Part shown: positions 2 to 57,187 of the stretch, piece by piece
How positions within the stretch are numbered: position 1 is the stretch's first letter
Layout: every line of letters starts with the position of its first letter
Source of the DNA: Thermoplasmata archaeon
Lineage (GTDB): Archaea; Thermoplasmatota; E2; JACPAO01; JAHFTW01
DNA: 64,000 nucleotides
Direction of reading: 5' to 3'
Assembly (NCBI GenBank): GCA_034667725.1
Contig: JAXDQS010000010.1
Span: 217,937 to 281,936 of the forward strand
Position numbers and translations under genes: made by a program
Notes under the pieces: model-generated
The model's database searches: none
Seen by the model: only the letters and a program-made list of their open reading frames with translations
What the model was told of the DNA's origin: nothing

Positions 2-2008
2 GGCGTGACCGGCCCCTGGAGCAACGCCCTGTCGGTCGCGACCTGGATCGCGCCGCCGGGCCCGGTCACGAACGCCGTCGCCTACAGCAAGAGCATGGCG
101 ACCGGCCGCGTCGAGCACGGGCTCACCGGCATCGTGGACTGGGACGTGCCCACCGCGAACAACTGCCCCGTCGTGGACTACAAGATCTACAAGACGGACA
201 ACACGTTCGCGCCGCTCGGCATCGACCTCTACAACGACCCGCACGCGGTGGTCCCCCACCCGACGACGGTGCTGGAGGACACGCCCAACGTGGTGTGCGT
301 CCGCTACACCTACGACATCCAGGCCGACAACACCGCCCTCGGCGGCGGCCTTGGCCCGGCCGTCCAGGTGAGCTACGTCCACATGATCTACGTCGATGCC
401 GACACCTACGCCGGCGACGCAGAGGCCATCACGGGCCTGCCCATCGCGGCCACCCGCGGCACCGCCTCGGGCGCGACCGGCCTGCCCCTCTCGGACGTGC
501 CCATGGTGGCGCTGCCCGTCTGCGGCCTGCCGTGCATGCCCTTGGACATCGAGCTGTGGGACACCGACGAAGGCCTCGCGTACCACGTCGACCTGGACGA
601 CTTCCCGTTCTACGAGAAGCGCGACCCGGCCGGCTACCCCGCGGGCATCGGCTACGACCTCCTGCTGGAGTCGCAGTGCGTCCCGGACCCGCCGTGCATG
701 AGCCAGCGCGGCGACTACCTCTACGACAACCCGTTCACCGGCACCAGCCTGTGGCTTGAGCTGGCCGGCGCGCCCAAGGTGCACTTCCACCAAGGCGTCC
801 CCGACCCGAACGGGGCCGTGACCCTGCCCACGGAGCCCGTGGGCACCGGCAAGGCCGTCGTCGTGGAGTGCGTCCCCGCCCTCCCCTGCCTGTGGGCCAA
901 CGCCGGCTACACCAACCAGGTGCTCGGCTTCGGCGGCTGGGCCTCGGCGCCGGGCTCCCTCGGGGCCTACGTCCACCAGCCGACCCTCGGCGGCCCCAAC
1001 CCGCTGGGCACGTACTACGCCGGCGCGGCCCTCGGCTGCATCCCGGACGTCCCATGCCTGCGGGGCGGCGGCGGGTACCTCGGCGTCCGCCCGCTCGACG
1101 CCGACGTCTACTGGCCCGGCGCCGACGGCGGCTCGCTGGTGGTGTTCGCGTACACGCCCGACTCGCCCACGGCGACCCCGGGCATCACGAGCACCTCGAC
1201 GCTGCCGACGGTGGACCGCAACTGCGTCGTCGACTGCAGGAGCATCCCGTCCAACACGCTGGTCAACCCGTGCGACCCCTGCCCGGACATGCCCAACCCT
1301 GGCCCGCTGCCGTGCGGCGTCTGCACGCGCGTGCAGGCCCAGGTCGTGTGCGACCCGGTCTGCCCCAACCAGGAATGCATCCCCGACTGCGAGGACCTCG
1401 GCACCTGCCCTCCCCCGTGCGACCCGCGGGACCCGAAGGCGGAGTGCTGCGAGTCGGCCCTCTCGGCCGACTGCCTGGTGCCGACCTGCGAAGACCTCCT
1501 GGGCCGGCCTTGCACGTGCGACAACCTGCTCGGGCGGTCCTGCACCTGCGACAGCCTGGCCGGGCGGTCCTGCACGGTGACGTGCCATGACGTCCCGCGG
1601 CCGAACCCCTCCGTGGACCCGTGCAATCCCTGCCCGCCGTCCACCACAGGCCCGGTCCCGTGCGACGTCTGCCCGCCCGCCCCCCCGCAGGTGTGCAGCC
1701 CGCCGGACTGCGACGACGTGACCAACCCCGTGGCCGGCCACGACCCATGCCGGCCGCCTTGCAGCGTGCCCATCAATGTGAACACCTGCCTGCCGTGCGA
1801 CCCGACACCGATCCAGGGATGCACGGGGACGCTGCCTTGCGTCAACAACCTGGATGACTGCCTGCCGGTGACGACGTGCGACCCCACGCCCATCCAGAAC
1901 TGCATTCCGGAGCTCCCGTGCGGGACCATCCAGGAGTGCATCGTCCGGCAGGAGCCCATCTGCGTCACCGTGGGTGGCCGGAACCCCATCTGCGTCACCA
2001 ACGCCTGA
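2..2008 (+). CDS. Cys-rich secreted repeat protein, 5'-partial (continues upstream of window)
   Basis: Open frame runs from the window edge to the stop at 2006-2008. C-terminal third is dense in Cys with repeated CDPTPIQ and TC(D/E)xL(L/A)GR(P/S)C modules; no C-terminal TM. Confidence 0.5.
   Translation, partial: GVTGPWSNALSVATWIAPPGPVTNAVAYSKSMATGRVEHGLTGIVDWDVPTANNCPVVDYKIYKTDNTFAPLGIDLYNDPHAVVPHPTTVLEDTPNVVCVRYTYDIQADNTALGGGLGPAVQVSYVHMIYVDADTYAGDAEAITGLPIAATRGTASGATGLPLSDVPMVALPVCGLPCMPLDIELWDTDEGLAYHVDLDDFPFYEKRDPAGYPAGIGYDLLLESQCVPDPPCMSQRGDYLYDNPFTGTSLWLELAGAPKVHFHQGVPDPNGAVTLPTEPVGTGKAVVVECVPALPCLWANAGYTNQVLGFGGWASAPGSLGAYVHQPTLGGPNPLGTYYAGAALGCIPDVPCLRGGGGYLGVRPLDADVYWPGADGGSLVVFAYTPDSPTATPGITSTSTLPTVDRNCVVDCRSIPSNTLVNPCDPCPDMPNPGPLPCGVCTRVQAQVVCDPVCPNQECIPDCEDLGTCPPPCDPRDPKAECCESALSADCLVPTCEDLLGRPCTCDNLLGRSCTCDSLAGRSCTVTCHDVPRPNPSVDPCNPCPPSTTGPVPCDVCPPAPPQVCSPPDCDDVTNPVAGHDPCRPPCSVPINVNTCLPCDPTPIQGCTGTLPCVNNLDDCLPVTTCDPTPIQNCIPELPCGTIQECIVRQEPICVTVGGRNPICVTNA
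1484..1573 (+). repeat. Three tandem 30-bp in-frame repeats encoding TC(E/D)xLxGR(P/S)C
   Basis: Units 1484-1513, 1514-1543 and 1544-1573 are near-identical (acctgcga..ggccggccttgc / acgtgcgac..cgggcggtcctgc / acctgcgac..cgggcggtcctgc). Confidence 0.7.
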
Positions 2009-2013
2009 CGGGC

Positions 2014-2064
2014 ATCTTCCCCCTTCGCCCCTCTTTCCCTCCTCCTTTTTCCTTCCCTTTTCGC
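2014..2064 (+). terminator. Pyrimidine-rich tract with T5/T4 runs directly after the stop; putative archaeal intrinsic terminator
   Basis: cttcccccttcgcccctctttccctcctcctttttccttcccttttcgc follows the stop; the CTCCTTTTTCC core recurs after two other genes in the window. Confidence 0.3.
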
Positions 2065-2092
2065 GCCGGGGAGCCTAAGTAGCATCGGCCGG

Positions 2093-4954: not shown

Positions 4955-4984
4955 GGCCTCCACGCGCAGCCAAGGCCCTCGGGC

Positions 4985-5110
4985 CCGCCGGCCTTTCCGG
5001 TGCAGCCACTTGTTTTCCGCTCATCGGAAGCTGCGCGACGGCCCCGCCCCCAAGGGCAGGGTTCCACCGGAAGCAAGGGGGTCTCTGAAGGGGGCGGATA
5101 CCTATATTTC
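4985..5110. other. Candidate replication origin region with ORB-like elements upstream of orc1
   Basis: gttccaccggaagcaagggggtc at 5061-5083 resembles the archaeal origin recognition box (TTCCA-N-GGAA dyad plus G-string). A second G-string and partial dyads (ttccggtg at 4994, ttttccgctcatcggaagc) lie nearby. No strongly AT-rich unwinding element is visible. Confidence 0.35.
5102..5109 (+). promoter_or_regulatory. TATA-box-like element upstream of orc1
   Basis: ctatattt is an AT-rich octamer in a ~70% GC background, ~45 nt upstream of the in-frame ATG at 5153. Confidence 0.3.
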
Positions 5111-5152
5111 CCATGCCCGTCTTGGCACGAATCCCGCGGGGGTCCAGGACCC

Positions 5153-6523
5153 ATGGAACCCGTGCAGCCGCTGGGAGGCGGAGGCGCGGCGGAGGGTCCA
5201 CGGCACCGAGCTGGGAGGTTTCCTTCGTTGGCTGTCAATGACTTGTTTGGCCAGTTGCTCCAGGTCGAGCCCCTCTTCGTGAACAAGGAGGTCATGCGGG
5301 CCTCCTACACGCCCGACGACCTGCCGCACCGGGACACGGAGATCCGCTCGCTCGGCAGCCTGCTGGTCCCCGCCCTGCGCGGCGAGACCCCGTCGAACGT
5401 CTTCATCTACGGCAAGACCGGCACGGGCAAGACCGCCTGCGTCAAGTACGTCGGCAAGGAGCTCAGCCACAAGGGCGTCGAGCTCGGCAAGCGCGTCAAC
5501 CTCATCTACATCAACTGCGAGATCGTCGACACCCAGTACCGCGTCCTGCAGAACATCGCCAACGCCTTCGTCCCCGCAGAGAACTGGAACCACCGCATCC
5601 CCTTCACCGGCTGGCCCACGGACGAAGTGTACGAGGCGCTGCGGCGCTACGTCGACGGCTGGATGAAGGCCGACGACACCCAATGGGTCCGCGACCCCAG
5701 CCGCGTCGGCGGCGAGGTCACCATCATCGTGCTCGACGAGGTGGACAAGCTCAAGGGCGACGAGGTCCTCTACAACCTCACCCGCATCAACGGCGACCTG
5801 GCCCAGAACAAGGTCAGCGTCATCGGCATCTCGAACGACCTCAAGTTCACCGAGTTCCTCGACCCCCGCGTCAAGTCGTCCCTCGGCGAGGAATCGATGA
5901 TCTTCGCGCCCTACGACGCCAAGCAGCTCGAGGACATCCTGATGCAGCGCGCCACCATGGCGCTCAAGCTGAACGTCGTCCAGGACGGCGTCGTGCCCCT
6001 GTGCGCCGCCCTGGCCGCCCGCGAGCACGGCGACGCCCGCCGCGCCCTCGACCTCCTCCGCGTCGCCGCCGAATTGGCCGAGCGCGACCGCGCCCCCAAG
6101 GTCACCGACGCCCACGTCCGCATGGCCCAGAACAAGATCGAGCTGGACCGCATCAGCGAGGTCGTGCGCACCCTGCCCACCCAGAGCAAGCTCGTCCTGC
6201 TGGCCACCATCCTCGGCGAGGAGGCCAACCGCGACCAAGGCGTCCACACCCTCACCACCGGCGAGGTGTTCGACGTCTACAAGGACCTCTGCAAGCACAC
6301 CGGCAGCGACGTGCTGACCCAGCGCCGCATCACCGACCTCATCAGCGAGCTCGACATGCTCGGCATCTTCACGGCCCGCGTCATCTCGAAGGGCCGCTAC
6401 GGCCGCACCCGCGAGATCCAGATGAGCTGCCCCATCGACAGCACCAAGCGCGTGCTGGAGGAGGACGAGCTCATCCGGACGGTCGTGCAGCACAAGCCGA
6501 AGAAGCAGCATCGTCTGACTTGA
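5153..6523 (+). CDS. orc1: Orc1/Cdc6 replication initiator (AAA+ ATPase with C-terminal winged helix)
   Basis: Walker A GKTGTGKT, Walker B IIVLDEVD, and the conserved N-terminal YTPDDLPHRDTEI motif. Start uncertain: in-frame ATG at 5153 or TTG near 5228; the ORF-track start at 5000 is probably too far upstream. Confidence 0.85.
   Translation: MEPVQPLGGGGAAEGPRHRAGRFPSLAVNDLFGQLLQVEPLFVNKEVMRASYTPDDLPHRDTEIRSLGSLLVPALRGETPSNVFIYGKTGTGKTACVKYVGKELSHKGVELGKRVNLIYINCEIVDTQYRVLQNIANAFVPAENWNHRIPFTGWPTDEVYEALRRYVDGWMKADDTQWVRDPSRVGGEVTIIVLDEVDKLKGDEVLYNLTRINGDLAQNKVSVIGISNDLKFTEFLDPRVKSSLGEESMIFAPYDAKQLEDILMQRATMALKLNVVQDGVVPLCAALAAREHGDARRALDLLRVAAELAERDRAPKVTDAHVRMAQNKIELDRISEVVRTLPTQSKLVLLATILGEEANRDQGVHTLTTGEVFDVYKDLCKHTGSDVLTQRRITDLISELDMLGIFTARVISKGRYGRTREIQMSCPIDSTKRVLEEDELIRTVVQHKPKKQHRLT
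6485..6519 (+). repeat. Direct repeat copy 1 (last 35 nt of the orc1 coding sequence)
   Basis: gtgcagcacaagccgaagaagcagcatcgtctgac recurs 96 bp downstream. Confidence 0.7.
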
Positions 6524-8867: not shown

Positions 8868-9320
8868 ATGGGCGACCTGGAGACGGCGCTCGCCTTCGTG
8901 GCGCGCCGCGCCGGCGCCCGCGCGATGCCGCCGGCGGCGTGGGTCCACCACCTCAGCCTGGAGCTGGCGTGGATGGCCCCCGCGCAGGCGCGCGCGTTCG
9001 TCGAGCGCGCCATGGCCGCCGGCGTGCTGCGGCTGGCTGGCGACGACGCGGAGCTGGCGTTCGACCCGCGCGCGGTCGAGGCGCCGCGCGGCTTCCGCCC
9101 GAACCCCGACACGGGCGCCGCCCCGCCGGAGGACCCGTTCGTGGCGTGGCTCGGCCGCGTGGGCGCCGCCACCGGCAAGGACCGGGCCGCCGTGCTGGCC
9201 GACGTGGCCGCGCGCCAGCAGGCCATGGGCGGGATGCTGACGGCGTGGGCGGCGCTGCTGTGGGCGGCGGCGGACGCGGGCCTCGACGTCAGGTCGGCGG
9301 CGCAAGCGTCCGCAGGATGA
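8868..9320 (+). CDS. Hypothetical protein
   Basis: ATG 3 nt after the upstream stop (operon-like spacing). Ala-rich helical protein; no family recognised. Confidence 0.4.
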   Translation: MGDLETALAFVARRAGARAMPPAAWVHHLSLELAWMAPAQARAFVERAMAAGVLRLAGDDAELAFDPRAVEAPRGFRPNPDTGAAPPEDPFVAWLGRVGAATGKDRAAVLADVAARQQAMGGMLTAWAALLWAAADAGLDVRSAAQASAG

Positions 9321-10518
9321 TGGGCACCGCCAGCGCGCCCACCAAGTGGATGCGGCGCACGCCCCACGCGATTGGCAGCAGGCCGACGAGGGCCGCCGCC
9401 ACCAGGATGGCCAGCCCGAGCGGCCCGGCCAGCACGCCGACGAGCGCCACCAGCAACGCGAGGGCGGCGAGCGGCACGCGGCGCGGGTCCCACTGATGGA
9501 CGCGCGCCGCCACCAGGCGGTCGAGCCCGCGCACCGCGGCCCAGCCGAGCACGGCGGCGGCCACGGTCGCGGCCAAGGCGTCGAGCATGGCCGTCGGCGG
9601 GCGGCCCGCCGTCCACGGCTGCGCCTGGCCTTGCGCGACGACGGCGAGCGCGATGCCGGTGCGTGCCTGGCCGGTCGTCCAAAGCAGCCCGAGCGACAGC
9701 GCGTGGTGGGCGGCGCCCACGGCCGCCAGCGCGGCGGCGGAGGCGCGCGCGTCGCCGCGTCCGTAGGCGAGGGTTGCGCCCATGGCTGGGGTGGCGCCCG
9801 GCGTCACCGCGGTCCAGAGGGCGGCCGCGCTGCCGCGCAGCGTCGCGGCCCAGCCGGCCAGGAAGGCGTGCCGGCTCCAGCGGCGCGGCGCCGGCTGCTG
9901 CGGCGGCAGCCGCGCCGCGCGCAGGCTGGCCAGCAGGCCGGCGGCGCCGAACAGGCCGGACAGCAGCGGCAGCAGTGGGCTGGCCGGGATTGGCAGCAGG
10001 CCGGCGGGGCGCAGGCCGAGGCAGGCCCAGCCGAGGGCGGCGCTGGCGGCCAGGACGGCGGCGGCGCGCAGCCGCTGCTGCTCGCGGGCGAGGACCCACG
10101 CGAGGGCGGCAAGGACGGTCCAGGGCGCCGCGGCCGCCGCCACGCCGCGCAGGTTGCCGGGCTCCAGCAGCAGCCACTTCAGCAGCCATCCGAGCGGGAC
10201 CGCGACCAGGGTCGCCGCCAGCGTGGCGTCGGCGGCCGCGCGCACCGCCTCGCGGCCGCGGCCGGCGAGCACGAGGCGGTGGGCCGGCAGCGCGCCCAGG
10301 TCGTCGTCGGGCACGCCGAGGTAGGTGCCGGGCAGCAGGCTCGCGAACGATTGGGTGGCGGCCATCGCGGCGAGGCCCGGGACGAGCGCTTCGTGCGGCG
10401 CGAGCGTGGCGGTCGCGACGGCGGCGAGCGTGTTGGCGTGCAGGCCCGGCAGCAGGCCGAGCAGCCCGGCGGCTGCACCGACGAGGGTGGCGGCCGCCAG
10501 GGTCGCAAGGTCGATCAT
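9289..10518 (-). CDS. Polytopic membrane protein, possibly TctA/DUF112-like transporter
   Basis: ~409 aa with many Gly/Ala-rich TM helices. Start overlaps the upstream stop by ATGA at 10515-10518. The long ORF-track frame 9289..12582 is a run-on through the upstream genes. Confidence 0.45.
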   Translation of the reverse strand: MIDLATLAAATLVGAAAGLLGLLPGLHANTLAAVATATLAPHEALVPGLAAMAATQSFASLLPGTYLGVPDDDLGALPAHRLVLAGRGREAVRAAADATLAATLVAVPLGWLLKWLLLEPGNLRGVAAAAAPWTVLAALAWVLAREQQRLRAAAVLAASAALGWACLGLRPAGLLPIPASPLLPLLSGLFGAAGLLASLRAARLPPQQPAPRRWSRHAFLAGWAATLRGSAAALWTAVTPGATPAMGATLAYGRGDARASAAALAAVGAAHHALSLGLLWTTGQARTGIALAVVAQGQAQPWTAGRPPTAMLDALAATVAAAVLGWAAVRGLDRLVAARVHQWDPRRVPLAALALLVALVGVLAGPLGLAILVAAALVGLLPIAWGVRRIHLVGALAVPIILRTLAPPT

Positions 10519-13004: not shown

Positions 13005-13008
13005 AGAC

Positions 13009-13223
13009 GATTTCAAAATTCCAAGTGGCCTGCGCGCGCCGGTTTGCAAGGAGTGCAAGGAAGGCCGCAATCCGCCGCAAAGCGGCGCGCCCTTCGGGGC
13101 GGTTTGCCGCCCCCCAATACGGCGTCAGGGGGTCCTTGGCGGGCCTCCAGCCCGCCGGCGGACCCCCTTCCTTGGACTGCGATGGCCGGAAACCGCCGCA
13201 GGCCTTCTTGGAATTTTGAAATC
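13009..13223. repeat. ~215-bp imperfect palindromic element with AT-rich 17-bp terminal inverted repeats (MITE-like or structured RNA)
   Basis: GATTTCAAAATTCCAAG at 13009-13025 is the exact reverse complement of CTTGGAATTTTGAAATC at 13207-13223. Further arm pairing GGCCTGCG/CGCAGGCC, CGGTTT/AAACCG, CAAGGAAGG/CCTTCCTTG; internal hairpins GCCGCaaaGCGGC and CGCCCttcgGGGCG. Confidence 0.5.
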
Positions 13224-13228
13224 ATCTC

Positions 13229-14752
13229 TTAGGCCGTTTCGGCCTGGTCCGCCGCCAGCTGCCGGTCCCGGCTGCGCTGCACGAAGAACATCGGCACGCC
13301 GGCCAGGATCAGGCCGGACGCGATCAGCGCCTGCGCGAGGAACTTGAAGTAGATGATGCCGACCACGAACGCCGAGGCCGCCATGAACAGCAGCGGCACG
13401 AACGGGTAGAGCGGCGTCTTGAACGGGCGCTCGACGTCGGCGTGGGTGCCCTTGATCCCCAGCCATGGGACGCCGCGCATCCGGACGTGGGCCCACGAGG
13501 TCGGCACGTAGAACAGGAAGATGGCGAACACCACCATGATGACGAGCTGCTCGTAGCCGCCGGTCATCACGAGCAGGCTGGCCCAGATGGCGGTGAAGTA
13601 GATGGCCCACCCCGGGACCGAGTGCTTGTTGAGCGTGCCCATCGAGCCTAGCAGGCTGCCGTCGCGGCTGAAGGCGTAGAACACGCGGGGCCCCGTCAGC
13701 AGGAAGCCGTTGACCGTGCCGAACACCGACACGAGGGCGACGGCGCTGATGAAGTCGTAGCCGCCGATCCCCAGCACGGCGCCTGCCGCCTCGGGGGCGA
13801 TGCGCTGGTTGGCGACCCCAAGCTCGACCGCCCGGTCGATGGGGATGACGTGGAAGTAGCTCGACGCCAGCGCGATGTAGATGGCGCTCGTGATGAGCGG
13901 GCCGACGATGAGTGCCACGGGCAGGTTGCGCCGGGCGTTGCGGACCTCGGAGGCGACGTAGGTGGCCTGCGGCCAGCCGTCGAACGCGAACAGCGACAAC
14001 GCAAGGGCGCCGCCGAACGCGGCCACGAGGGCGCCGCCGCCCATGCCCTCCGGCGCGAAGCCGCCGCCTTGGGCCTGGTAGGCCTGCGGGTGGGCGGTGC
14101 CGAACACGAACACGATGACGACCAGGCTGGCCAGGCCCAGCACCTTGGCGATGGTGCTGACGTTCTGGATGCGGCCGGCGATGGCGGCGCCGCGCGAGTT
14201 GATGAACGCCAACAGCAGGATGACGGCGATGGCCAAGAACGCAGGCCCGTAGGCGGGGATCGTGATGGGGTCGATGTGGACCAGCTTGCGGGTGCAGGCG
14301 CCGGCGAGGCTCTCCTCGACGCAGGGGCCGGTGTCCACGAGGCTCGTGAGGGCGAACTTCGTGCCCGGCATCGTGCCGCCCATACGCTCGACGAAGTAGG
14401 TGGCGAACCGGCTGAACGCCACCGCGACGCCGGCGATGATGCCGCTCTGGATGACCCAGAACTGCGACCACCCGAACAGGTAGGCGCTGAACCGGCCGAT
14501 GCCCTCCTTGAGGAAGTGGTACTGGCCGCCGGCGCGCGGGAACATGCTCGACAGCTCCGCGAACGTCAAGGCACCCAGCACCGTCAGCACCGCGCCGGCC
14601 ACCATCACCAAGAGGATGAGGCCCGGGCTCGGCAGCACCTCCGCCATGTCCGCGGGCAGCAGCAGGATGCCGGAGCCGATCATCGAGCCGACGATGATCG
14701 TGATGGCCTCGAACAGCCGCAGGTTCTGCTTGAACTTGATAGGCCCGCCCAT
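13229..14752 (-). CDS. Amino acid permease (APC superfamily transporter)
   Basis: 507 aa, ~12 TM segments, typical APC N-terminal region (ITIIVGSMIGSGILLLP...FAELSSMFPRAGGQYHFL). Confidence 0.75.
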   Translation of the reverse strand: MGGPIKFKQNLRLFEAITIIVGSMIGSGILLLPADMAEVLPSPGLILLVMVAGAVLTVLGALTFAELSSMFPRAGGQYHFLKEGIGRFSAYLFGWSQFWVIQSGIIAGVAVAFSRFATYFVERMGGTMPGTKFALTSLVDTGPCVEESLAGACTRKLVHIDPITIPAYGPAFLAIAVILLLAFINSRGAAIAGRIQNVSTIAKVLGLASLVVIVFVFGTAHPQAYQAQGGGFAPEGMGGGALVAAFGGALALSLFAFDGWPQATYVASEVRNARRNLPVALIVGPLITSAIYIALASSYFHVIPIDRAVELGVANQRIAPEAAGAVLGIGGYDFISAVALVSVFGTVNGFLLTGPRVFYAFSRDGSLLGSMGTLNKHSVPGWAIYFTAIWASLLVMTGGYEQLVIMVVFAIFLFYVPTSWAHVRMRGVPWLGIKGTHADVERPFKTPLYPFVPLLFMAASAFVVGIIYFKFLAQALIASGLILAGVPMFFVQRSRDRQLAADQAETA

Positions 14753-15192: not shown

Positions 15193-16002
15193 ATGGACCG
15201 CGGCCGCCTTCTCTGGGAGTACCGCCCGCCGCGCGCCCATCCCATCCTCTACGCCGGCCTGCTGGTGTTCAGCTTCGTGTTCGCCACCGGCTCGCTGGAG
15301 AACCTTGCCCGCGACAACGTGCCGCGCCTGTACGCGGTCTACGCCGCCCCCGTCGCCGCCGTCCTCGTCCTCATGGCCGCCCTCTGGCCGACCCCCGTGC
15401 GCATCCACGAGAACGGTGTCGCCCCCAGCCGCGCCCTGGTGCTGCGGTGGTGGCGCCCGTTCGTCCCGTGGCCCCAGGTCGCCGCCTGCTACGCTGTCTC
15501 CTACGACGTGACCGGCGCCTTCGTGTCGCCGTTCGCCTCCTCCGACGGCAAGGTCACCCAGACCGGCATCGGGCTGGAGCTGCACGGCGGCGCCCTCGAG
15601 ACGCTGCGCTTCACGCCCACCCGCTTCGCCCTCACGAGCCGCCGCAGCCGCGGCTACCGCGAGGCCATCGAGGTGGTGCGCGAGCGCTTCGCCCTGCTTG
15701 GCCGCCCGCTCGTGGCCCAGGCCGAGCGGCTCGCCCCGGCCGACCGCGAGACCCTGCTGGCCGAGGCGCGCAAGCCGTTCCTGCCGTTCTTCGCCATCGT
15801 GTTCCTGTTCGCGAGCGCCGCGCCCGTGGTGTGGCTCCTGATGGAGACGCTGCGCTGGGAGCCGCCGGGCGCCATCGCCGCCGCCCTGCTGCTGCCACTT
15901 GGCACCAGCCTCCGGAGCTACCTGCAGAGCCGGCGCCGCAACGCCATCCTCAACCGCCTCAGCAAGGCCGCCGAGTTCGAGCGCCGCACGGGGCCGGCAT
16001 GA
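15193..16002 (+). CDS. Hypothetical membrane protein
   Basis: Internal ATG followed by several hydrophobic helices; stop overlaps the next start (ATGA at 15999-16002). Confidence 0.4.
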   Translation: MDRGRLLWEYRPPRAHPILYAGLLVFSFVFATGSLENLARDNVPRLYAVYAAPVAAVLVLMAALWPTPVRIHENGVAPSRALVLRWWRPFVPWPQVAACYAVSYDVTGAFVSPFASSDGKVTQTGIGLELHGGALETLRFTPTRFALTSRRSRGYREAIEVVRERFALLGRPLVAQAERLAPADRETLLAEARKPFLPFFAIVFLFASAAPVVWLLMETLRWEPPGAIAAALLLPLGTSLRSYLQSRRRNAILNRLSKAAEFERRTGPA

Positions 16003-19265: not shown

Positions 19266-21383
19266 ATGCGTCCAGCGATGCTGCTTCCAGCCTTGGCCCT
19301 GGTGGGCCTGGGGCTTCTCACGATGATCCCGCACGAGGCCCAGGCCCAGGCGGTCATCGACAACGGCTTCGTCCAGGTCGGCGTCCGCGCCGACGGCGCC
19401 CTCATCGCCTCCCCGGTCTCGACCGACGGCGACTGCACCGTCGTCGGCGGCGTCACGGTCTGCACCGGCGGCGCCGGCACGGGCCTGGTCGGCCTGCGCC
19501 ACATGGCCACCGGCTACGAGTCGACGGCCGACGGCTGCGCCTGCGAGACCTGGGGCGTGTCGTACGACGGCGCCGTGTCGGGCTACGCCCGCAGCGGCAG
19601 CGCCGGCCCCGGCTCCGGCCTCACGCCGGTGGCGTTCTCGAACACCGCCAGCACCGCCGTGGCCACCGTGCGCGCCGGCGACCTGCTGGTCACCCACGAC
19701 TTCCACCCGACGGCACTCACCAACGACCTGTACGAGGTCAACGTCACCATCGAGAACACCGGCCCCGCCCACGTCGACCTGCGCTACCGCCGCGCCATGG
19801 ACTGGGACATCCAGCCCACCGCCTTCAGCGAGTTCGTCACCATCGAGGCCAAGAGCCCGCTGCCGACCGCGCTGTCCTGCTCCAGCGACGACGGCTTCGC
19901 CACCGGCAACCCCCTCAGCGGCCTCGGCTCGATCCTGATGTACGGCCCCGGCTGCGGCTCCGACTTCATCGACTCCGGCCCGAGCGACCACGGCGCCGCC
20001 TTCGACTTCCACTTCGGCGTCATCGCGGCCAGCGAGAAGCGCGAGTTCCGCATCTACTACGGCGCCGCCTCCTCCGAGATCGACGCCTACGCCGCCATGG
20101 CCGCGGTGGGCGCCGGCGTCTGGACCTTCGGGCAGTGCAACCCGGGCAGCAACCCCGCCTGCGACACCAGCACGGGCGCGCCGGCCACCTTCATGTTCGG
20201 CTTCGACGACGTCGACATCATCCCGGTCAAGCCCGCCAACATCCCGCCCGTCGCCGCCGGCACCTACCTCGCCCGCACCGCCTGCGAGGACTCCCGCGTC
20301 TCGTTCGACGGGAGCAAGAGCACCGACCCCGACGGCTTCGTCCGCACCCACGCCTGGACCTTCGGCGACGGCGGCAACGCCACCGGCGAGAAGGTCGACC
20401 ACCTCTACAAGGCGCCGGGCCCCTACACCGTGACGCACACTGTGATGGACAACAACGGCGCCCTCACCACCCGCACCTTCACCATCGTGAGCGCCGGCGA
20501 CCCCGACTGCTGCCTCAACCTCAACCCGGTCCCGCCCATCGACGCGATGGAGTTCGACGCCGTCGGCTTCCTGCCCATCGTCTGGGACTTCGAGGACGGC
20601 CCCTACAGCTTCGACCTGTTCCCGCTGCCGACGGGCGCCACCTTCAACCCCGCCACCGGAGAGTTCGGCTGGCCCACCGCGGCCGGCGACGCTGGCGCCT
20701 ACACCCTCACCCTGCTGGCCACGGACGGCGGCGGCTGCACCGTCGGCACCGAGGTCGACATCGCCGTCCGCCCGTACCCGCCGCCGCTGCCGCCCGCCGA
20801 GGACCATGACCTCGACGGCATCGCCAACGCGCAGGACAACTGCCCCGACCGCGTCAACCGCGACCAGGGCGACGCCGACCGCGACGGCCTCGGCGACCTG
20901 TGCGACGACGACCCCGGCCTCACGGGCCCGGAGGCCGAGGCCGCGCGCCGGCTGCGCGCCGGCGGCGCGCGCGACCGCGACCGCGACGGGGTCGCCGACG
21001 TGGCCGACGTCTGCCCCGACGTGGCCGACCGCGACCAGAAGGACCTCGACGGCGACCGCCTCGGCGACCTGTGCGACCCGGACGCCGACGGCGACACGGT
21101 GCGCGACCAGCCCGCCGCCGGCATCCCGGCCGACAACTGCCTCCAACTGGCCAACGCGGACCAGGCCGACGCGGACGGCGACGGCGTCGGCGACGCCTGC
21201 GCCGCCGACCGCCTCGCCGCCGCCCAGGCGCGCAGCAGCGACGCCGAAGGCCGGCCCGCCGTCCTGGCCGCCGAGCAAGGCGGCCTCGGCTCGGGCGCCA
21301 AGGCGTTCATGCTGGCGTTCGCCGCCGCAGGCCTCCTGGGCCTGCTGGTGGTCTTGGCCATCCTGCGCCGCAACGAAGCGTAG
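19266..21383 (+). CDS. Surface protein with PKD domain, Ig-like domain, TSP3 calcium-binding repeats and C-terminal TM anchor
   Basis: Signal peptide; PKD motif (FDGSKSTDPDGFVRTHAWTFGDGGNATGEKVDHLYKAPGPYTVTHTV); Asp-rich DxDxDGxxDxxDNCP repeats; C-terminal AFMLAFAAAGLLGLLVVLAILRRNEA. Paralogous to 57188..59221 and 61203..63659. Confidence 0.6.
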   Translation: MRPAMLLPALALVGLGLLTMIPHEAQAQAVIDNGFVQVGVRADGALIASPVSTDGDCTVVGGVTVCTGGAGTGLVGLRHMATGYESTADGCACETWGVSYDGAVSGYARSGSAGPGSGLTPVAFSNTASTAVATVRAGDLLVTHDFHPTALTNDLYEVNVTIENTGPAHVDLRYRRAMDWDIQPTAFSEFVTIEAKSPLPTALSCSSDDGFATGNPLSGLGSILMYGPGCGSDFIDSGPSDHGAAFDFHFGVIAASEKREFRIYYGAASSEIDAYAAMAAVGAGVWTFGQCNPGSNPACDTSTGAPATFMFGFDDVDIIPVKPANIPPVAAGTYLARTACEDSRVSFDGSKSTDPDGFVRTHAWTFGDGGNATGEKVDHLYKAPGPYTVTHTVMDNNGALTTRTFTIVSAGDPDCCLNLNPVPPIDAMEFDAVGFLPIVWDFEDGPYSFDLFPLPTGATFNPATGEFGWPTAAGDAGAYTLTLLATDGGGCTVGTEVDIAVRPYPPPLPPAEDHDLDGIANAQDNCPDRVNRDQGDADRDGLGDLCDDDPGLTGPEAEAARRLRAGGARDRDRDGVADVADVCPDVADRDQKDLDGDRLGDLCDPDADGDTVRDQPAAGIPADNCLQLANADQADADGDGVGDACAADRLAAAQARSSDAEGRPAVLAAEQGGLGSGAKAFMLAFAAAGLLGLLVVLAILRRNEA

Positions 21384-21438
21384 CCGAAAAAATCGAAGGA
21401 AACGGAAGGAAAAGGGAAGAAGGGAATGTCAGCTTGGC
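21384..21438 (-). terminator. T-rich/pyrimidine-rich tract downstream of the minus-strand gene
   Basis: Minus-strand reading ...cattcccttcttcccttttccttccgtttccttcgattttttcgg directly after the stop of 21439..22041. Confidence 0.3.
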
Positions 21439-22041
21439 TCAGAACAGGCTCGCGACCCCGGACACCATGCCGGAGAAGAACGCCTCGACCTGGCCCATGA
21501 AGCTCGCGTCGGCCTCGACGTCCGCCTGGGCGTCGACCGAGGCGTCCGCCTGCAGGCCCGCGTCGAGCTGGGCGTCGGCCGCGACGTCCGCGTCGACCGC
21601 CGCGTGGGCGTCCGCGGCCACGTTGGCGGCCGCGTCGAGCGCGCCGTCGACCGTGCCGTGGACCGTCGACTGGGCGGTCGCGGTGGCGGTGCCGGCCAGG
21701 CCGAGGCCCGTGCCGAGGGCACCGGTGGCGGTCGCCTGCGCGTCCGCCGTCACGTCGGCCGCGGCGTGGGCCGCGGCGTCGAGCTGGGCGTCGGCGTCGA
21801 CGCTGGCGTCGAGGGCCGCGTCGAGGTTGGCGTCGACGTTGGCGTCAAGGCTGGCGTCCGCATCCGCGGCGGCGTCCAGGCCAGCGTCCGCGGCGGCGTC
21901 GGCGGCAGCGTCCGCCGCGCCGGTCGCGCCGAGGCCGAGCATGGCCGTGCCCGGGATGGCCAGGGCCAGCAGGGCAGTCAGGGCAAGGGCAGCAAGGCCC
22001 GCCTTCTTCCAGGGTTTCTTGGGGGTGTGTTGGGGTTCCAT
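21439..22041 (-). CDS. Ala/Asp-rich low-complexity secreted protein
   Basis: Signal peptide after the internal Met (MEPQHTPKKPWKKAGLAALALTALLALAIPGTA), then ~150 aa of D-A-rich degenerate repeats; hydrophobic C-terminus. Confidence 0.4.
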   Translation of the reverse strand: MEPQHTPKKPWKKAGLAALALTALLALAIPGTAMLGLGATGAADAAADAAADAGLDAAADADASLDANVDANLDAALDASVDADAQLDAAAHAAADVTADAQATATGALGTGLGLAGTATATAQSTVHGTVDGALDAAANVAADAHAAVDADVAADAQLDAGLQADASVDAQADVEADASFMGQVEAFFSGMVSGVASLF

Positions 22042-22252
22042 CGGGGTCACCTTGTCTCCTGGTCCGACGGCGCGGCACATAAGGCGACGCGATACGCCGG
22101 GAAACTCCCAGCACCTCCTCAGGCAGGCTTATCTACGAACCATCCTGAGCCGGCCCCCGACGCCTGTGCCGGGTCCCCCCGGGTCGGTCGTTGAAAGATG
22201 AAGGAGGGCGGGGCGCCACCGCGGCCCAAACTCCCTATGGAGACAGACAACT

Positions 22253-22621
22253 ATGGCAATGTTCGTTCGTTTTGAGACCCCCAAGGAGCTTGGGGCGCAG
22301 ATCTACGAGACCATCGAGAAGGCCCGCAGCACGGGCCGGGTCGCCAAGGGCGCCAACGAGGTCACGAAGCAGGTGGAGCGCGGCGTGGCGAAGTTCGTCG
22401 TCATGGCCGAGGACGTCACCCCCGAGGAGATCCTCGCCCACATCCCGCTTTTGTGCGAGGAGAAGGGCATCCCCTACGGCTACGTCCCCTCCAAGGCCGA
22501 GCTCGGCAACGCCGCCGGCCTCGCCGTCGGCACCGCCGCGGTCGCCATCGTCGACGCCGGCACCGCCGCCGAGTCCGTCGAGGACGTCGCCAAGAAGACC
22601 AGCGCCCTCAAGAGCGCGTAA
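22253..22621 (+). CDS. rpl7ae: Ribosomal protein L7Ae
   Basis: 122 aa; the [37 protein letters not shown] region is the conserved L7Ae/L30e fold signature. Confidence 0.85.
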
Positions 22622-22634
22622 GGAGGCAGTTCCC

Positions 22635-22973
22635 ATGGCTGAAGAAGCGAAGAAGGGCAAGGCCCCCGCCGACGACAAGCCGGCGAAGGCGGCCAAGGCC
22701 CCGAAGGACGCCGACGCGGCACCCGCCTCGGCACCCGCCACGCCCCAGGCCGGCGAGACCGACGCCTTCCCCGCGGAGGTCGTCGAGGTCGTCTCGCGCG
22801 GCGGCATGACCGGCGAGGTCACCCTCGTCAAGGTCCGCGTCCTTGCGGGCCGCGACAAGGGCCGCATCATCGCCCGCAACGCGATGGGCCCCATCCAGAT
22901 GGGCGACATCCTGATGCTGCGCGAGACCGAGCGCGAGGCGCGCACCATCGGCGGCGGGGGTCGGAAGAAGTGA
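22635..22973 (+). CDS. rps28e: Ribosomal protein S28e with Lys/Ala-rich N-terminal extension
   Basis: C-terminal 70 aa ([57 protein letters not shown]) is canonical S28e. AGGAGG at 22621-22626 precedes the ATG. N-terminal ~40 aa is KA-rich. Confidence 0.8.
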
Positions 22974-23281
22974 GCAACTGCTCCTTCTGCGGCAAGCCCG
23001 TCGAGGCCGGCACCGGCAAGATGTACATCAAGCGGGACGCGACCGTGTTCCACTTCTGCAGCAGCAAGTGCCAGCGCAACCAGGTCGAGCTCGGCCGCGT
23101 CAACCGGCACGTCGGCTGGACCAAGGCCTACGCCGAGCACAAGGGCGACCGCCAGACGACGTCCGCCCGCGCCGCCGGCAAGGGCACCGCGACCGGCAAG
23201 GCCGTCGCCGCCGCCAAGCCTGCCAAGCCCGCGAAGCCCGCCAAGGCCGCCAAGAAGACGGCCGAGGCCCAGGCCGAGTAA
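22970..23281 (+). CDS. rpl24e: Ribosomal protein L24e
   Basis: [37 protein letters not shown] zinc-ribbon N-terminus; GTG start overlaps the S28e stop. Confidence 0.85.
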
Positions 23282-23294
23282 GCGCGCGCCAGCG

Positions 23295-23328
23295 CCTCCT
23301 TTTTCCCTCTCCTTCCTCCCCTCTTTTG
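23295..23328 (+). terminator. Pyrimidine-rich T-tract after the ribosomal protein operon
   Basis: cctcctttttccctctccttcctcccctcttttg shares the CTCCTTTTTCC core with the tracts at 2041 and 28070. Confidence 0.3.
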
Positions 23329-23351
23329 AACGCGGCCGGCTTCGGCGCCCC

Positions 23352-23906
23352 GTGGCCCTGACGCCGTCCACGATGGTGGAGCTCGGCACGCCCGCCCCCG
23401 ACTTCGCGCTGCCCGACACCGAGGGCCGCGCCGTCCGCCGCGCCGACTTCGCGGGCCGGCCGCTGCTGGTGATGTTCCTCTGCAACCACTGCCCCTACGT
23501 CAAGCACGTCGCCAAGGGGCTCGCCGACGCCACCGCCAAATACCTCCAGAAGGGGCTCGCCGTGGTCGCCATCAACGCCAACGACGCCGAGCGCTACCCC
23601 GAGGACTCCCCCGCCAACATGCGTCGCGAGGCCCGCGACCGCGGCTACCGCTTCCCCTACCTGTTCGACGAGACCCAGGAAGTGGCCCGCGCCTACCACG
23701 CCGCCTGCACGCCGGACTTCTTCCTCTACGGCCGCGACCACCGCCTGGTCTACCGCGGCCAGTTCGACGACTCGCGCCCAGGCAACGGCAAGCCCGTGAC
23801 CGGCATCGACCTCACGATGGCCGTGGAAGGATTGCTGGCGGGCCGGGCGCCGATCGAGCCGCAGGTGGCGTCGATGGGATGCAACATCAAGTGGAAGGCG
23901 GCCTAG
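23352..23906 (+). CDS. Thioredoxin-fold thiol-disulfide oxidoreductase / peroxiredoxin-like protein
   Basis: CxxC-type motif in FLCNHCPYV within a thioredoxin-like fold signature; start may be the ATG at 23373. Confidence 0.6.
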   Translation: MALTPSTMVELGTPAPDFALPDTEGRAVRRADFAGRPLLVMFLCNHCPYVKHVAKGLADATAKYLQKGLAVVAINANDAERYPEDSPANMRREARDRGYRFPYLFDETQEVARAYHAACTPDFFLYGRDHRLVYRGQFDDSRPGNGKPVTGIDLTMAVEGLLAGRAPIEPQVASMGCNIKWKAA

Positions 23907-27820: not shown

Positions 27821-28057
27821 TTGATGGTCCTGCGCTTCTTCCGCCGCAAGCCTGCCGCCAAGCCCCAGCCGCCTGCCGACAAGTCGCTCCCGGAGGTCTC
27901 GCGTCCCCAGCCCCCGCCCGTCGTGGCGCCCGAGCTGACCGAGTCCCCCAAGGCCCCTAAGCAGGTCAAGAAGGCCCCCGCCAAGAAGGCGGCCGCGAAG
28001 AAGGCCTCGGCCAAGAAGGCGCCTGCCAAGAAGGCGGCCGCGAAGAAGGCCAAGTAG
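27821..28057 (+). CDS. Small Lys/Ala-rich basic protein (histone H1-like KAAAKK repeats)
   Basis: 78 aa ending KKAPAKKAAAKKASAKKAPAKKAAAKKAK. Confidence 0.4.
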   Translation: MMVLRFFRRKPAAKPQPPADKSLPEVSRPQPPPVVAPELTESPKAPKQVKKAPAKKAAAKKASAKKAPAKKAAAKKAK

Positions 28058-28095
28058 GCCCGTTCCCCCTCCTTTTTCCCCGCTTCGTCTTCCGC
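28058..28095 (+). terminator. Pyrimidine-rich T-tract between the KA-rich gene and uvrB
   Basis: gcccgttccccctcctttttccccgcttcgtcttccgc with the shared CTCCTTTTTCC core. Confidence 0.3.
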
Positions 28096-45444: not shown

Positions 45445-46896
45445 ATGCCCAAGGCCCCGCGCCAACGACGCACCAGCATCCGCACCGCCAGCGACGCCGT
45501 CCAAGACCAGTACGTCGCCCGCATCCGCGCCCTCGCCGACGACCCCACCGTCGTGCTCCCCGAGCCCGTCGGCCCCGAGCACCCCGTCCTTGCCAAGCTG
45601 CGCCGCCGCCTAAAGGCCGGCAAGCTCCCCGTCACCGCCCGCTTCGACAAAGGCCTCGTCGGCGCCGTCCGCGTCGCCCTGTCCCTCGCCGACGTCGACT
45701 CGGCGCCCCGCATGGTGGACGCCCGCGTCGACGGCAACCGCCGCTTCTACCTCCAGCGCGGCCACGTCGTCCGCCTGTGCAACCTCGGCGTCCAGAACTG
45801 GGACGACCCCCTCAGCCTGATGCTCGCCTACGGCCGCCTCGCCCCCAAGCACGGCCTCCACCTGTTCGCCGGCGACAAGCTCTGGTGCAGCGGCGCCAAG
45901 CCCAACCCCCCGCCCGAATGGTTCGCCGCCCTGGCCCGCCGCACCGGCGTCCCCCTCACCCCCAACGACGACGGCGCCGCCTGCCCGCACGGCGACCGCC
46001 CCCGCCTCGAGCTCCGTATGCGCAACGGCCCCGCCCTCCTCGTGTGCGGCCCCTGCGGCGCCAAGTCCGCCAGCGGCGGCATGAACCTCCACGGCCACCT
46101 CCTGCAACGCTACCTCAGCGACCGCCCCGCCCGCCCCGTCGAGCTCGCCGTCCGCCTCCCCGACGGCAAACGCCACGACCTGCCCGACACCCTCCAGGCC
46201 AGCTACCGCGCCGGCCGCGCCGACGAAGCCGCCATCCTCGAGGTCGCCCTCCAGGCGTTCCACGGCTCGCGCGCCGACGGCGGCTACGTCGCCGCCGGCC
46301 GCACCTACCCCACCCAGTCCGCCTTCCTCGACGCCCTCGGCCTCGCGCCCTGGGAAATGGAGGCCGTCCGCCGCATGACCGCCGACGGCCACATCGGGCC
46401 CAGCCTCGACGTGCCCGTGGTGCTGGCGGCGCACGCCGACAAGCTGCCCGAGGCCGTCGAGGCGCTGCTGCCCGGCGACGGCGCCGCGTTCGCAAGGAAG
46501 CACGCCGGCACCGAGGCGCGGACTTTGCTGCGGATGGCGCACGACGAGGCGCAACGGCGGGCGCGGACCCGCGACTTGCCTGTGCTGGAGGGCGTGGGCC
46601 CGTTGGGGCAGTGGATGGACGCGTTCGTCCGGCAGGCGCGGACTTTGGACCGCGGCGAGCTGCTGCAACAAGTCCGCAAGGAGATCGGCAACCCACGGCA
46701 CCCGGCGCACCTGTACGCTTTTTTGTGCGCGGCGGGATTGGAAAGCGAGGGGGAACGGAGCTTCACCTTGGACCAAAGGGAGGCCGGCAAGCACTGGTCA
46801 GGCGCTGCGGCGAAGGTGATGGCTTCCACTGGTGAAGGGTATCGGCTGGCCGTGCTGGAGTATCTCAGGGAGACGGGGGCGGGGGAGGGGGCGTAG
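45445..46896 (+). CDS. Hypothetical protein with Cys cluster
   Basis: 483 aa; CSGAKP...CPHGDRP...LVCGPCG suggests a metal-binding site. No family recognised. Confidence 0.45.
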   Translation: MPKAPRQRRTSIRTASDAVQDQYVARIRALADDPTVVLPEPVGPEHPVLAKLRRRLKAGKLPVTARFDKGLVGAVRVALSLADVDSAPRMVDARVDGNRRFYLQRGHVVRLCNLGVQNWDDPLSLMLAYGRLAPKHGLHLFAGDKLWCSGAKPNPPPEWFAALARRTGVPLTPNDDGAACPHGDRPRLELRMRNGPALLVCGPCGAKSASGGMNLHGHLLQRYLSDRPARPVELAVRLPDGKRHDLPDTLQASYRAGRADEAAILEVALQAFHGSRADGGYVAAGRTYPTQSAFLDALGLAPWEMEAVRRMTADGHIGPSLDVPVVLAAHADKLPEAVEALLPGDGAAFARKHAGTEARTLLRMAHDEAQRRARTRDLPVLEGVGPLGQWMDAFVRQARTLDRGELLQQVRKEIGNPRHPAHLYAFLCAAGLESEGERSFTLDQREAGKHWSGAAAKVMASTGEGYRLAVLEYLRETGAGEGA

Positions 46897-55681: not shown

Positions 55682-56671
55682 CTAGAGCAGGCCCGCCTTC
55701 TGCAGCGTCAGCAGGTCCTCGGTGGAGAGCTTCTCGCCCTTCTTGAAGCGCTGGAACACCATCTCCGCCGCCGCCTCGTTCTTGGCCTGGGTGGCCGCCG
55801 AGGGCTGCCCGCCGCCGTGCTGGCCGGTGGCGTCCTCGATCTCGTGGATGGCGTTGACGAACTGGATGTACGTCTTGTGAATCTCGTCCGCCTCCATCTT
55901 GGCGACGACGAACTTCTCCTGGAGCTTGTCCGCCTTCTTGCGGAGCTTGTCGGACTCCTTGTAGAGCTTGATCATGGCGTCGTGCTCCGACTGGGCCTTC
56001 TCCGCCATCTCGCCGACCTTGGCGTGCGCCTTCTCGGCCTTCTCCTTGAGCTCCTCCGCCTTCTCCAGGCTGGCCTTCAGCTCGGGGTCGGCGCGCAGCA
56101 GCTTCTCCTTCTCGCGGATGAGCTTGCCGATCTCCTTGAGGCGCTCCATCAGCGCCTTCTCCTTGGCGACCGTCAGCACCGAGGTCATCTGCTGGAACTC
56201 GAGCTGCTTGGCCTCCTTCTTGAGCTTCGCGACCGTCAGGGTGGCGTCGCCCTCGGGCATCCGGGTGCGCCGCAGCACCTCCGCGGACTTCTGCGCCTCG
56301 TCGGCCGCCCGGTTGGCCTCGTCCCGCAGCTCCTTCGAGCGCTTGACGCCCTCGTTCATCTCGTCGCGGCGCTTCTTGTGCTCGTTGGCCTGGTTCACGA
56401 GCCCGCGGACCTCTGCGTTGTAGGTGTCGCGCTCCTCGGCGTGCTTGCGCGCCTCGTCGTTGAGGCGGTCGCGCTCGCGCCGGAGCATGTTGGCGCGGCT
56501 CTGGAGGTCCTCCTTCTTCATGCCGGGCTTGGGCCCGTTGGGGTTCGGCTTGGGAGGCTCGGGGGTCGCCTCGACGGGGGCGGCCGCGGTCTCGGTCTCA
56601 GGGGCTTCGGGCGCGGGGGGCGACTCGGGCGCCGGCGGCGCCGCCGAGGCCACATCGGTGGTCTCACTCAT
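55682..56671 (-). CDS. Archaeal coiled-coil protein
   Basis: ~330 aa. Pro/Ala-rich N-terminus, long K/E/R-rich heptad region, conserved-looking C-terminus (VFQRFKKGEKLSTEDLLTLQKAGLL). The ORF-track frame extends antisense through the next gene and is a run-on. Confidence 0.55.
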   Translation of the reverse strand: MSETTDVASAAPPAPESPPAPEAPETETAAAPVEATPEPPKPNPNGPKPGMKKEDLQSRANMLRRERDRLNDEARKHAEERDTYNAEVRGLVNQANEHKKRRDEMNEGVKRSKELRDEANRAADEAQKSAEVLRRTRMPEGDATLTVAKLKKEAKQLEFQQMTSVLTVAKEKALMERLKEIGKLIREKEKLLRADPELKASLEKAEELKEKAEKAHAKVGEMAEKAQSEHDAMIKLYKESDKLRKKADKLQEKFVVAKMEADEIHKTYIQFVNAIHEIEDATGQHGGGQPSAATQAKNEAAAEMVFQRFKKGEKLSTEDLLTLQKAGLL

Positions 56672-56832
56672 GGTCCAGTCACCAGGATGGGCGTTCGCAC
56701 AAGGGCCCCCTAGATAACGGGTGCGGCTGAGGAGGGCACCATAATCCCCGCGCCCTAACGGTGCATGAGGGGACAGAAGGAGGATGTAGGCGGCAAAAAG
56801 GTGGCCAAAATGTGCTACGGTGCCGCCGATTC

Positions 56833-56897
56833 CCACAGAACTCTGTGGAATTTTGGCTAGGCCTGCCAAATCAATGTCGAGGTCTGTGGAATCTGTG
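56833..56897. promoter_or_regulatory. Cluster of TCTGTG/CACAGA hexamers (dyad plus direct repeats) in a divergent promoter region
   Basis: CCACAGAacTCTGTGG palindrome at 56833-56848 and TCTGTGgaaTCTGTG at 56883-56897, in a relatively AT-rich island. Confidence 0.3.
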
Positions 56898-57154
56898 TCC
56901 AGTCGGCGGTGCGCGACGGGCCAGCGGCTCCAGGCGACCTGCACGGCCTTCGGTCCAACCCCCCTCGTGCCGCGCCACCGTCTCCGCGTACAGCTCCAGC
57001 TGCCGCAACAGCCGCCCGGCCGTGCCATGCGACAGGCCGCCCCGTTCGCGCCCCGCCCCCCCAACCTCGCGCGTGGCCCCAGCAACGGGAACCCCAAGCC
57101 CAAGGCCGAAAGTCGTAGCCGGCCCGCTGTCCGCCCAGGACGCCGCCTGCAATG

Positions 57155-57162
57155 CTTTATTT
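57155..57162 (+). promoter_or_regulatory. TATA-like box (within hairpin CCTGCAAtgctttatTTGCAGG), leaderless spacing to the ATG at 57188
   Basis: ctttattt centred ~30 nt upstream of the ATG that begins the signal peptide. Confidence 0.35.
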
Positions 57163-57187
57163 GCAGGACAGGGTGGTGACGCCCAGA

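Follow-up and report, generated by a model that had tools for sequence, protein, structure and literature searches.

The 64-kb stretch of DNA analysed here (the window) carries four polypyrimidine tracts, each lying close behind the stop codon of a gene and on the sense strand of that gene. From their sequence and position we consider that they are probably archaeal oligo-T (T5C) transcription terminators, a signal of a known kind. Tract 1 is proposed to be the terminator of the gene for a Cys-rich protein which precedes it.

Host and gene content

The GC content of the window is 72.2%, close to the ~70% given in a first-pass annotation of this DNA. From a codon-bias gene map and the translations, an L7Ae-S28e-L24e operon was located at 22259–23281, with internal gaps of 13 and -4 nt; we regard such an operon as a hallmark of archaea. 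The L24e protein matches MEA3191250.1, from the MAG of a Thermoplasmata archaeon (487-kb contig), at 100% identity. JGI contig L104 is nearly the same as the window, with seven mismatches in 13.6 kb, and in it PolD DP2 and Orc1/Cdc6 are seen to adjoin the left end of the window. Judged by the ribosomal operon, Orc1/Cdc6, PolD DP2, the L24e identity and an A/T peak at about -27 from start codons, the host is an archaeon with archaeal transcription machinery, and the first four of these features bear out the archaeal genome that the first-pass annotation had assumed.

Exact-sequence look-up of the UvrB and L24e proteins of the window returned no record, and a UvrB search of genome contigs gave, among the matches listed, no closer relatives than bacteria and distantly related archaea, all with ≤58% identity. 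The search of metagenome contigs with L24e was dominated by low-complexity KPAKAAKK matches, and the five distant low-GC loci that it produced were set aside. The homolog search with the Cys-rich protein encoded at the left end of the window gave no match.

Of the seven positions at which L104 differs from the window, six fall in a 14-nt patch at 13106–13119, and the seventh, at 13205, is in the same convergent gap (13005–13228). In this gap the 17-mer GATTTCAAAATTCCAAG stands right after both stop codons, at 13009 (+) and 13207 (-). Another gap, of 288 nt (4955–5242), lies upstream of the Orc1/Cdc6 gene (5255–6523; Pfam) and contains an inverted repeat, TTCCGGTGCAGCC (4995–5007) and GGTTCCACCGGAA (5060–5072), together with direct CAYCGGAAGC repeats which are followed by a G run. 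These repeats resemble origin recognition boxes, and the gap may be a replication origin.

Polypyrimidine tracts of the window

Tracts were defined in the window as stretches of at least 90% pyrimidine. Only four in the whole 64 kb have a length of at least 30 nt, and each of them lies between genes (Table 1). The three on the plus strand share CTCCTTTTTCC, at 2042–2052, 23296–23306 and 28069–28079. Their full common core is the 12-mer CCTCCTTTTTCC, of which the window has exactly three copies, beginning at 2041, 23295 and 28068, each inside a tract of 36–55 nt that starts 0–10 nt past a plus-strand stop codon. This recurrent CTCCTTTTTCC motif with its T5 run had been reported after at least three plus-strand genes in the first-pass annotation, and it is indeed present there, the positions given being off by no more than 1 nt. 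The T-rich tract reported after the minus-strand gene ending at 21439 was likewise found, as tract 4, with a T4 run (21410–21413) 25 nt and a T6 run (21387–21392) 46 nt past the stop codon on the strand of that gene. T5CC thus occurs three times on the plus strand, and T4CC and T6C on the minus strand. In tract 1 the T5 run (2046–2050) is accompanied by a T4 run at 2058–2061, and tract 3 takes up most of the 43-nt gap between the gene before it and uvrB (GTG at 28101), its T5 lying 15 nt past the stop codon. The plus-strand gene of the convergent pair at tract 4 (19293–21383) has a 3' flank of purines, not pyrimidines.

Table 1. Polypyrimidine tracts of the window, the genes that precede them and neighbouring TATA-like boxes
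Feature	Position	Strand	Remarks
3' part of gene for 1359-aa Cys/Pro-rich secreted-type protein	2–2008	+	Gene before tract 1; full length in L104
Tract 1, 55 nt (29 C, 22 T, 3 G, 1 A)	2013–2067	+	4 nt after TGA (2006–2008) of the Cys-rich gene
CCTCCTTTTTCC copy 1, T5 then CC	2041–2052	+	Within tract 1
CCTAAGTAG, TATA-like box	2074–2082	+	About -27 from carboxyltransferase GTG start (2105)
Tract 4, C/T on minus strand	21386–21432	-	In 55-nt convergent gap, after stop codon 21439–21441 of the D/A-rich gene
Gene for D/A-rich protein, weak sub-threshold bactofilin match	21439–22050	-	Gene before tract 4
Gene for ribosomal protein L24e, last in L7Ae-S28e-L24e operon	22970–23281	+	Gene before tract 2
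Tract 2, 38 nt	23292–23329	+	10 nt after L24e TAA; 12-mer 23295–23306, T5 23300–23304
CTCTTTTGAAC, TATA-like box	23321–23331	+	-27 from GTG at 23352; overlaps 3' end of tract 2
Gene for small conserved basic protein (MVLRFFRRK...) with Lys/Ala-rich tail	27824–28057	+	Gene before tract 3; ortholog upstream of uvrB in L103
Tract 3, 36 nt	28058–28093	+	0 nt after stop codon; 12-mer 28068–28079, T5 28073–28077

The recurrence of the core goes beyond chance or composition. With up to two mismatches allowed, CCTCCTTTTTCC has 10 matches against 1.7 expected, a number reached in none of 100 shuffles. When each of the four tracts was shuffled internally, three of them shared an 11-mer in 0.04% of trials, and three fixed T5 runs had the same six flanking bases in 0.025% of trials. 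No further copy of CCTCCTTTTTCC was found in the additional 7.9 kb of this genome that L104 covers.

Distribution of the tracts in related genomes

Nine relatives (66–74% GC) were assembled through homolog searches with L24e and the carboxyltransferase and through contig look-ups, giving, with the window, 224.8 kb and ~210 genes in which intergenic tracts of at least 27 nt were counted. All 15 such tracts, which are not all independent and stand for about eight gene families (six are orthologous, downstream of L24e, and there are two further orthologous pairs), follow a stop codon and have the sense orientation. Fourteen of them begin 0–17 nt past the stop codon and the remaining one 63 nt past it, and the distance from tract to next gene ranges from 4 to 451 nt. 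All 13 tracts in tandem gaps have the sense orientation (p = 2.4e-4). Per 3' end, tracts are found at 13 of 82 in tandem and 2 of 24 in convergent gaps, which do not differ significantly, and at none of 62 promoters in divergent gaps (Fisher p = 6e-4 against the tandem gaps). Such a distribution would be expected if the tracts mark 3' ends, but not if they were promoter elements.

When 96 3' flanks were compared by their maximum pyrimidine fraction, two groups separated: 15 flanks reach ≥0.92, and the rest cluster near 0.64. The tracts therefore form a discrete class, present at ~15% of gene ends, and since only this share of the 3' flanks has one, transcription of most genes must be terminated by other means. 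No tRNA genes were found in the window or the relatives. Runs of four or more T are about seven times denser in intergenic DNA (57 in 24.3 kb) than in coding sequence (68 in 200.5 kb). Taken alone, they show a modest bias to 3' ends (32 vs 21, p = 0.011), and we attribute its being only modest to T runs also serving as TATA boxes.

RNA structure and proposed termination

The folding z-scores of the four 3' flanks of the window are -0.95, -0.29, -0.16 and +1.96; no significant hairpin was found in any of the four, and hairpin-plus-T sites are not enriched over shuffled sequence (4 vs 5.5). Bacterial intrinsic terminators, in which a GC-rich stem-loop precedes the T run, were rejected on these folding and hairpin scans: a U run at the 3' end is common to both, but the GC-rich hairpin is missing here. 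The predicted unpaired fraction of the tract RNA is 0.45–0.75 compared with ~0.3 for coding RNA, and is above that of most other 3' flanks. In a calculation with nearest-neighbour values after Sugimoto 1995 and SantaLucia 1998, the 9-bp RNA:DNA hybrids at the T5/T6 sites rank with the ~10 weakest of the window on their strand and deviate from the mean by more than 3.5 SD.

The weakest hybrid on the plus strand is formed at a T6 run, 46719–46724, which is on the sense strand in the predicted coding region 45445–46896, ~175 nt before its stop codon. This run could be an internal terminator or a sign of a wrong gene call.

If the tracts are terminators, RNA polymerase moving past the stop codon would transcribe a G-poor C/U stretch of 30–55 nt that is unable to fold on itself, would there meet four to six U and then C, a site with an RNA:DNA hybrid predicted to be among the weakest in the genome, and the transcript would end at the U run and C. 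Release might be intrinsic, as for T5–T6 with other archaeal polymerases; five to six T are sufficient for the Pyrococcus polymerase in vitro (PMC2253867). Alternatively, the universal archaeal factor aCPSF1/FttA might bind the U tract and cut at the CC/CA just downstream. aCPSF1 binds the U tracts of terminators (PMC8716108), and reportedly cleaves at CA/CC a short way downstream when the RNA has lost the protection of translation (PMC8501993). Here too, as read from the sequence, a U tract is followed by CC and would be exposed right after the translation stop. That transcripts end at the tracts, by an intrinsic or a factor-assisted route, is what we infer from these features. At copy 3, and at the 3' end of copy 2, the next gene is close by, and there the same or a neighbouring T run would double as TATA box.

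The order CCUCC-UUUUU-CC directly after a stop codon fits the published termination signals of archaea. In the GC-rich Haloferax volcanii, the 3' ends that map between genes come after a T stretch, at a C, and insertion of T5C led to termination of 95% of transcripts (PMC7237163); a pentaU motif was also found before the ends of haloarchaeal transcripts (Brenneis et al. 2007, PMC2151090). The window resembles these haloarchaeal systems (PMC2151090; Berkemer et al. 2020, PMC7237163) in its GC-rich, apparently mostly leaderless genome with about T5 and then C in the 3' flank, in the several T runs that one 3' flank may hold, and in the accommodation of terminator and next promoter within gaps of ~40–100 nt. 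It differs in that the T run is set inside a G-poor polypyrimidine tract of 30–55 nt which starts at the stop codon. Moreover, the haloarchaeal studies describe the surroundings of the U run as not conserved in sequence, and they often found a stem-loop before it, which is not predicted for the present tracts. The oligo-pyrimidine terminators described for thermophilic archaea in the 1980s, stable-RNA genes included, are, as far as they are cited in PMC2151090, T-dominated and from AT-rich hosts, whereas in the present tracts C equals or exceeds T at 72% GC.

Since the T5-then-C signal is already well established, the finding is confirmatory, and what is distinctive is the polypyrimidine setting and the new lineage. 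If the terminator reading is true, the tracts would mark the ends of transcription units in uncultured GC-rich Thermoplasmata and so aid the annotation of operons and gene starts; together with the TATA-like boxes at -27 they would amount to a haloarchaeon-like leaderless architecture in a different class. They would also be natural test substrates for the role of the surroundings of the U tract, and of C/U-rich unstructured RNA, in factor-dependent termination.

Conservation of the tracts

Eight relatives containing L24e were examined. As in the window, a C/T tract lies downstream of L24e in L087, L089, L091, L092 and L094; it is absent in L086 and L095. The L24e-downstream tracts have a mean column identity of 34% and show no alignment beyond their C/T composition, and their longest T run varies, being T5 in the window and L092, T4 in L094, T3 in L087 and L091, and missing in L089. 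A T run of at least four is present in only about two thirds of the tracts of the relatives, those without it including that of L089, the second tract of L092 and two in L094. Neither CCTCCTTTTTCC nor the relaxed YYYYYTTTTTCY occurs in ~160 kb of the nine high-GC relatives. A lineage-wide sequence consensus, as put forward in the first-pass annotation for the terminators, was therefore rejected, composition alone being kept. Since the core is absent and the composition retained in the relatives, the shared core is a preference of one genome, while the lineage keeps a polypyrimidine tract.

A plain oligo-U model leaves two things unexplained: some tracts have no T run that reaches four, and what is conserved is the composition, not the sequence. 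Perhaps the terminator is defined by its composition, as a G-free C/U tract running from the stop codon of which the T5C core is only the strongest variant, although we regard this extension as rather unlikely. It is also a tentative idea, and not one that we would favour, that such a compositional tract acts through a weak pyrimidine-RNA:purine-DNA hybrid and/or as an unfolded landing pad for aCPSF1/FttA, as an analogue of the bacterial rut site that works without Rho. To our knowledge, Archaea do not possess Rho. The likeness to rut sites is one of analogy only: both are C-rich, G-poor and unstructured RNA downstream of a stop codon, but rut sites measure 70–80 nt and the tracts described here 30–55 nt, with T runs inside them.

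By the same analogy, the G-poor C/U tract itself, and not the T run, might be the unstructured platform on which aCPSF1/FttA loads when it is exposed at the translation stop. This is doubtful in our opinion. The conserved composition downstream of L24e, the tracts without a T run of four or more, the start within 0–17 nt of the stop codon and a predicted unpaired state unusual for a transcriptome of 72% GC would all agree with such a platform, as would the proposal that aCPSF1 acts upon the uncoupling of translation and transcription and cuts at CC/CA (PMC8501993); however, the published binding of aCPSF1 is specific for U tracts, not C/U (PMC8716108), T4–T6 is present in all four tracts of the window, and the tracts are shorter than rut sites.

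Two pyrimidine tracts in L094, at 10283–10330 and 15528–15600, both have copies of a CCTGGAATTCCAG(C/T)GATTG-like element behind them, and one of these sites also has T7/T5 runs after the pyrimidine tract. This may be a small repeated intergenic element.

Promoters and T runs as TATA boxes

In 130 upstream regions the A/T fraction peaks at -28 to -26 from the start codon, at 0.45–0.53 compared with a background of ~0.29, and T/A-rich TATA-like boxes are found at about -27 in many individual genes. The Shine-Dalgarno-like GGAGG was confined to sites within operons, such as that at 22622 ahead of S28e. These sequence features indicate that the mRNAs of this Thermoplasmata lineage are mostly leaderless, with a TATA box at about -27, which is also the haloarchaeal pattern (PMC2151090). 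With a TATA box at this distance from leaderless genes, T runs can be promoter elements as well as terminators.

We therefore weighed the reading of the tracts as promoter elements, that is, as a TATA box with a pyrimidine-rich upstream region, of the mostly leaderless genes downstream. The A/T peak and the individual boxes at about -27 agree with it, and so do two of the plus-strand tracts. The T5 of copy 3 lies at -28 to -24 of uvrB, the TATA position of this lineage, and in the syntenic relative L103 a T4 run is at -29 to -26 from the homologous uvrB start, so this T5 is probably the uvrB TATA box, also or instead of a terminator. At tract 2 the overlapping box CTCTTTTGAAC includes a T4 run (23324–23327) at -28 to -25 from the next start, from which the T5 of copy 2 is 47 nt distant. 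The other sites do not agree. The T5 of copy 1 is 54 nt upstream of the next start, and the CCTAAGTAG box, to which an AAGTAG box at the same distance in L097 is similar, makes tract 1 separate from the downstream promoter. In L097 a tract follows the gene upstream of uvrB, and a T4 run of this relative was considered as the uvrB TATA box and rejected: the homologous start, at 13338, comes 94 nt after the tract, with a separate CCTTATCTG box, and the tract therefore belongs to the upstream gene. At tract 4 no promoter is expected, since the gap is convergent. Taken together with the lack of tracts at divergent promoters, their presence in convergent gaps, and their anchoring to the preceding stop codon rather than to the widely varying next start, this makes the promoter reading improbable as a general account.

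The oligo-T termination signals proposed in the first-pass annotation are indirectly supported by T5C sequence, 3'-end position and sense strand, and need qualifying at copy 3, where the T5 is also at the TATA position of uvrB. The CCUCC core was considered too as an anti-Shine-Dalgarno mimic pairing with GGAGG; this was dropped, the genes being mostly leaderless and the tracts tied to stops, not starts.

The L7Ae gene appears to differ from most genes here in having a leader of ~100 nt (22128–22258), with a conserved TATA-like CTTATCTAC at 22128 and then conserved GTTGAAAGATGA at 22190 and, close ahead of the ATG, GGAGACAGAC at 22239. These elements recur in L086 (~9180–9292) and L087 (~6230–6334). 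The leader looks like an autoregulatory leader of the k-turn type bound by L7Ae itself; it has no Rfam match.

Other readings of the tracts

Elements of the 3' UTR which bind a protein (e.g. Sm-like) or an RNA, and so control mRNA stability or translation, would suit the sense-strand position and single-stranded character of the tracts. We consider this very unlikely: nothing specific favours it, no conserved sequence or structure was found, and the transcript would have to pass T5C/T6C, which are efficient terminators in other archaea (PMC7237163, PMC2253867). There is also no Rfam match, the whole window giving none at gathering thresholds and permissive thresholds around tracts 2 and 4 giving a chance miRNA match only.

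Finally, a DNA-level structure (triplex, or i-motif/G-quadruplex on the template strand) could draw on the pure homopurine/homopyrimidine stretches and the several C3–5 runs of tract 1, but this, like a mutational or compositional by-product without function, is extremely unlikely, given that the sense orientation of all 15 tracts and their anchoring to stop codons would be unexpected, that by inspection tracts 2–4 lack four closely spaced C runs and the spacing is inconsistent, and that the shared 12-mer goes beyond what composition predicts.

One divergent gap of the window, 534 nt long (56654–57187), includes a low-GC stretch at 56829–56898, with CTGTGGAAT at 56843 and 56884 and the inverted CCACAGAA nearby. 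From these repeats, the gap may contain binding sites of a regulator or encode a small RNA.
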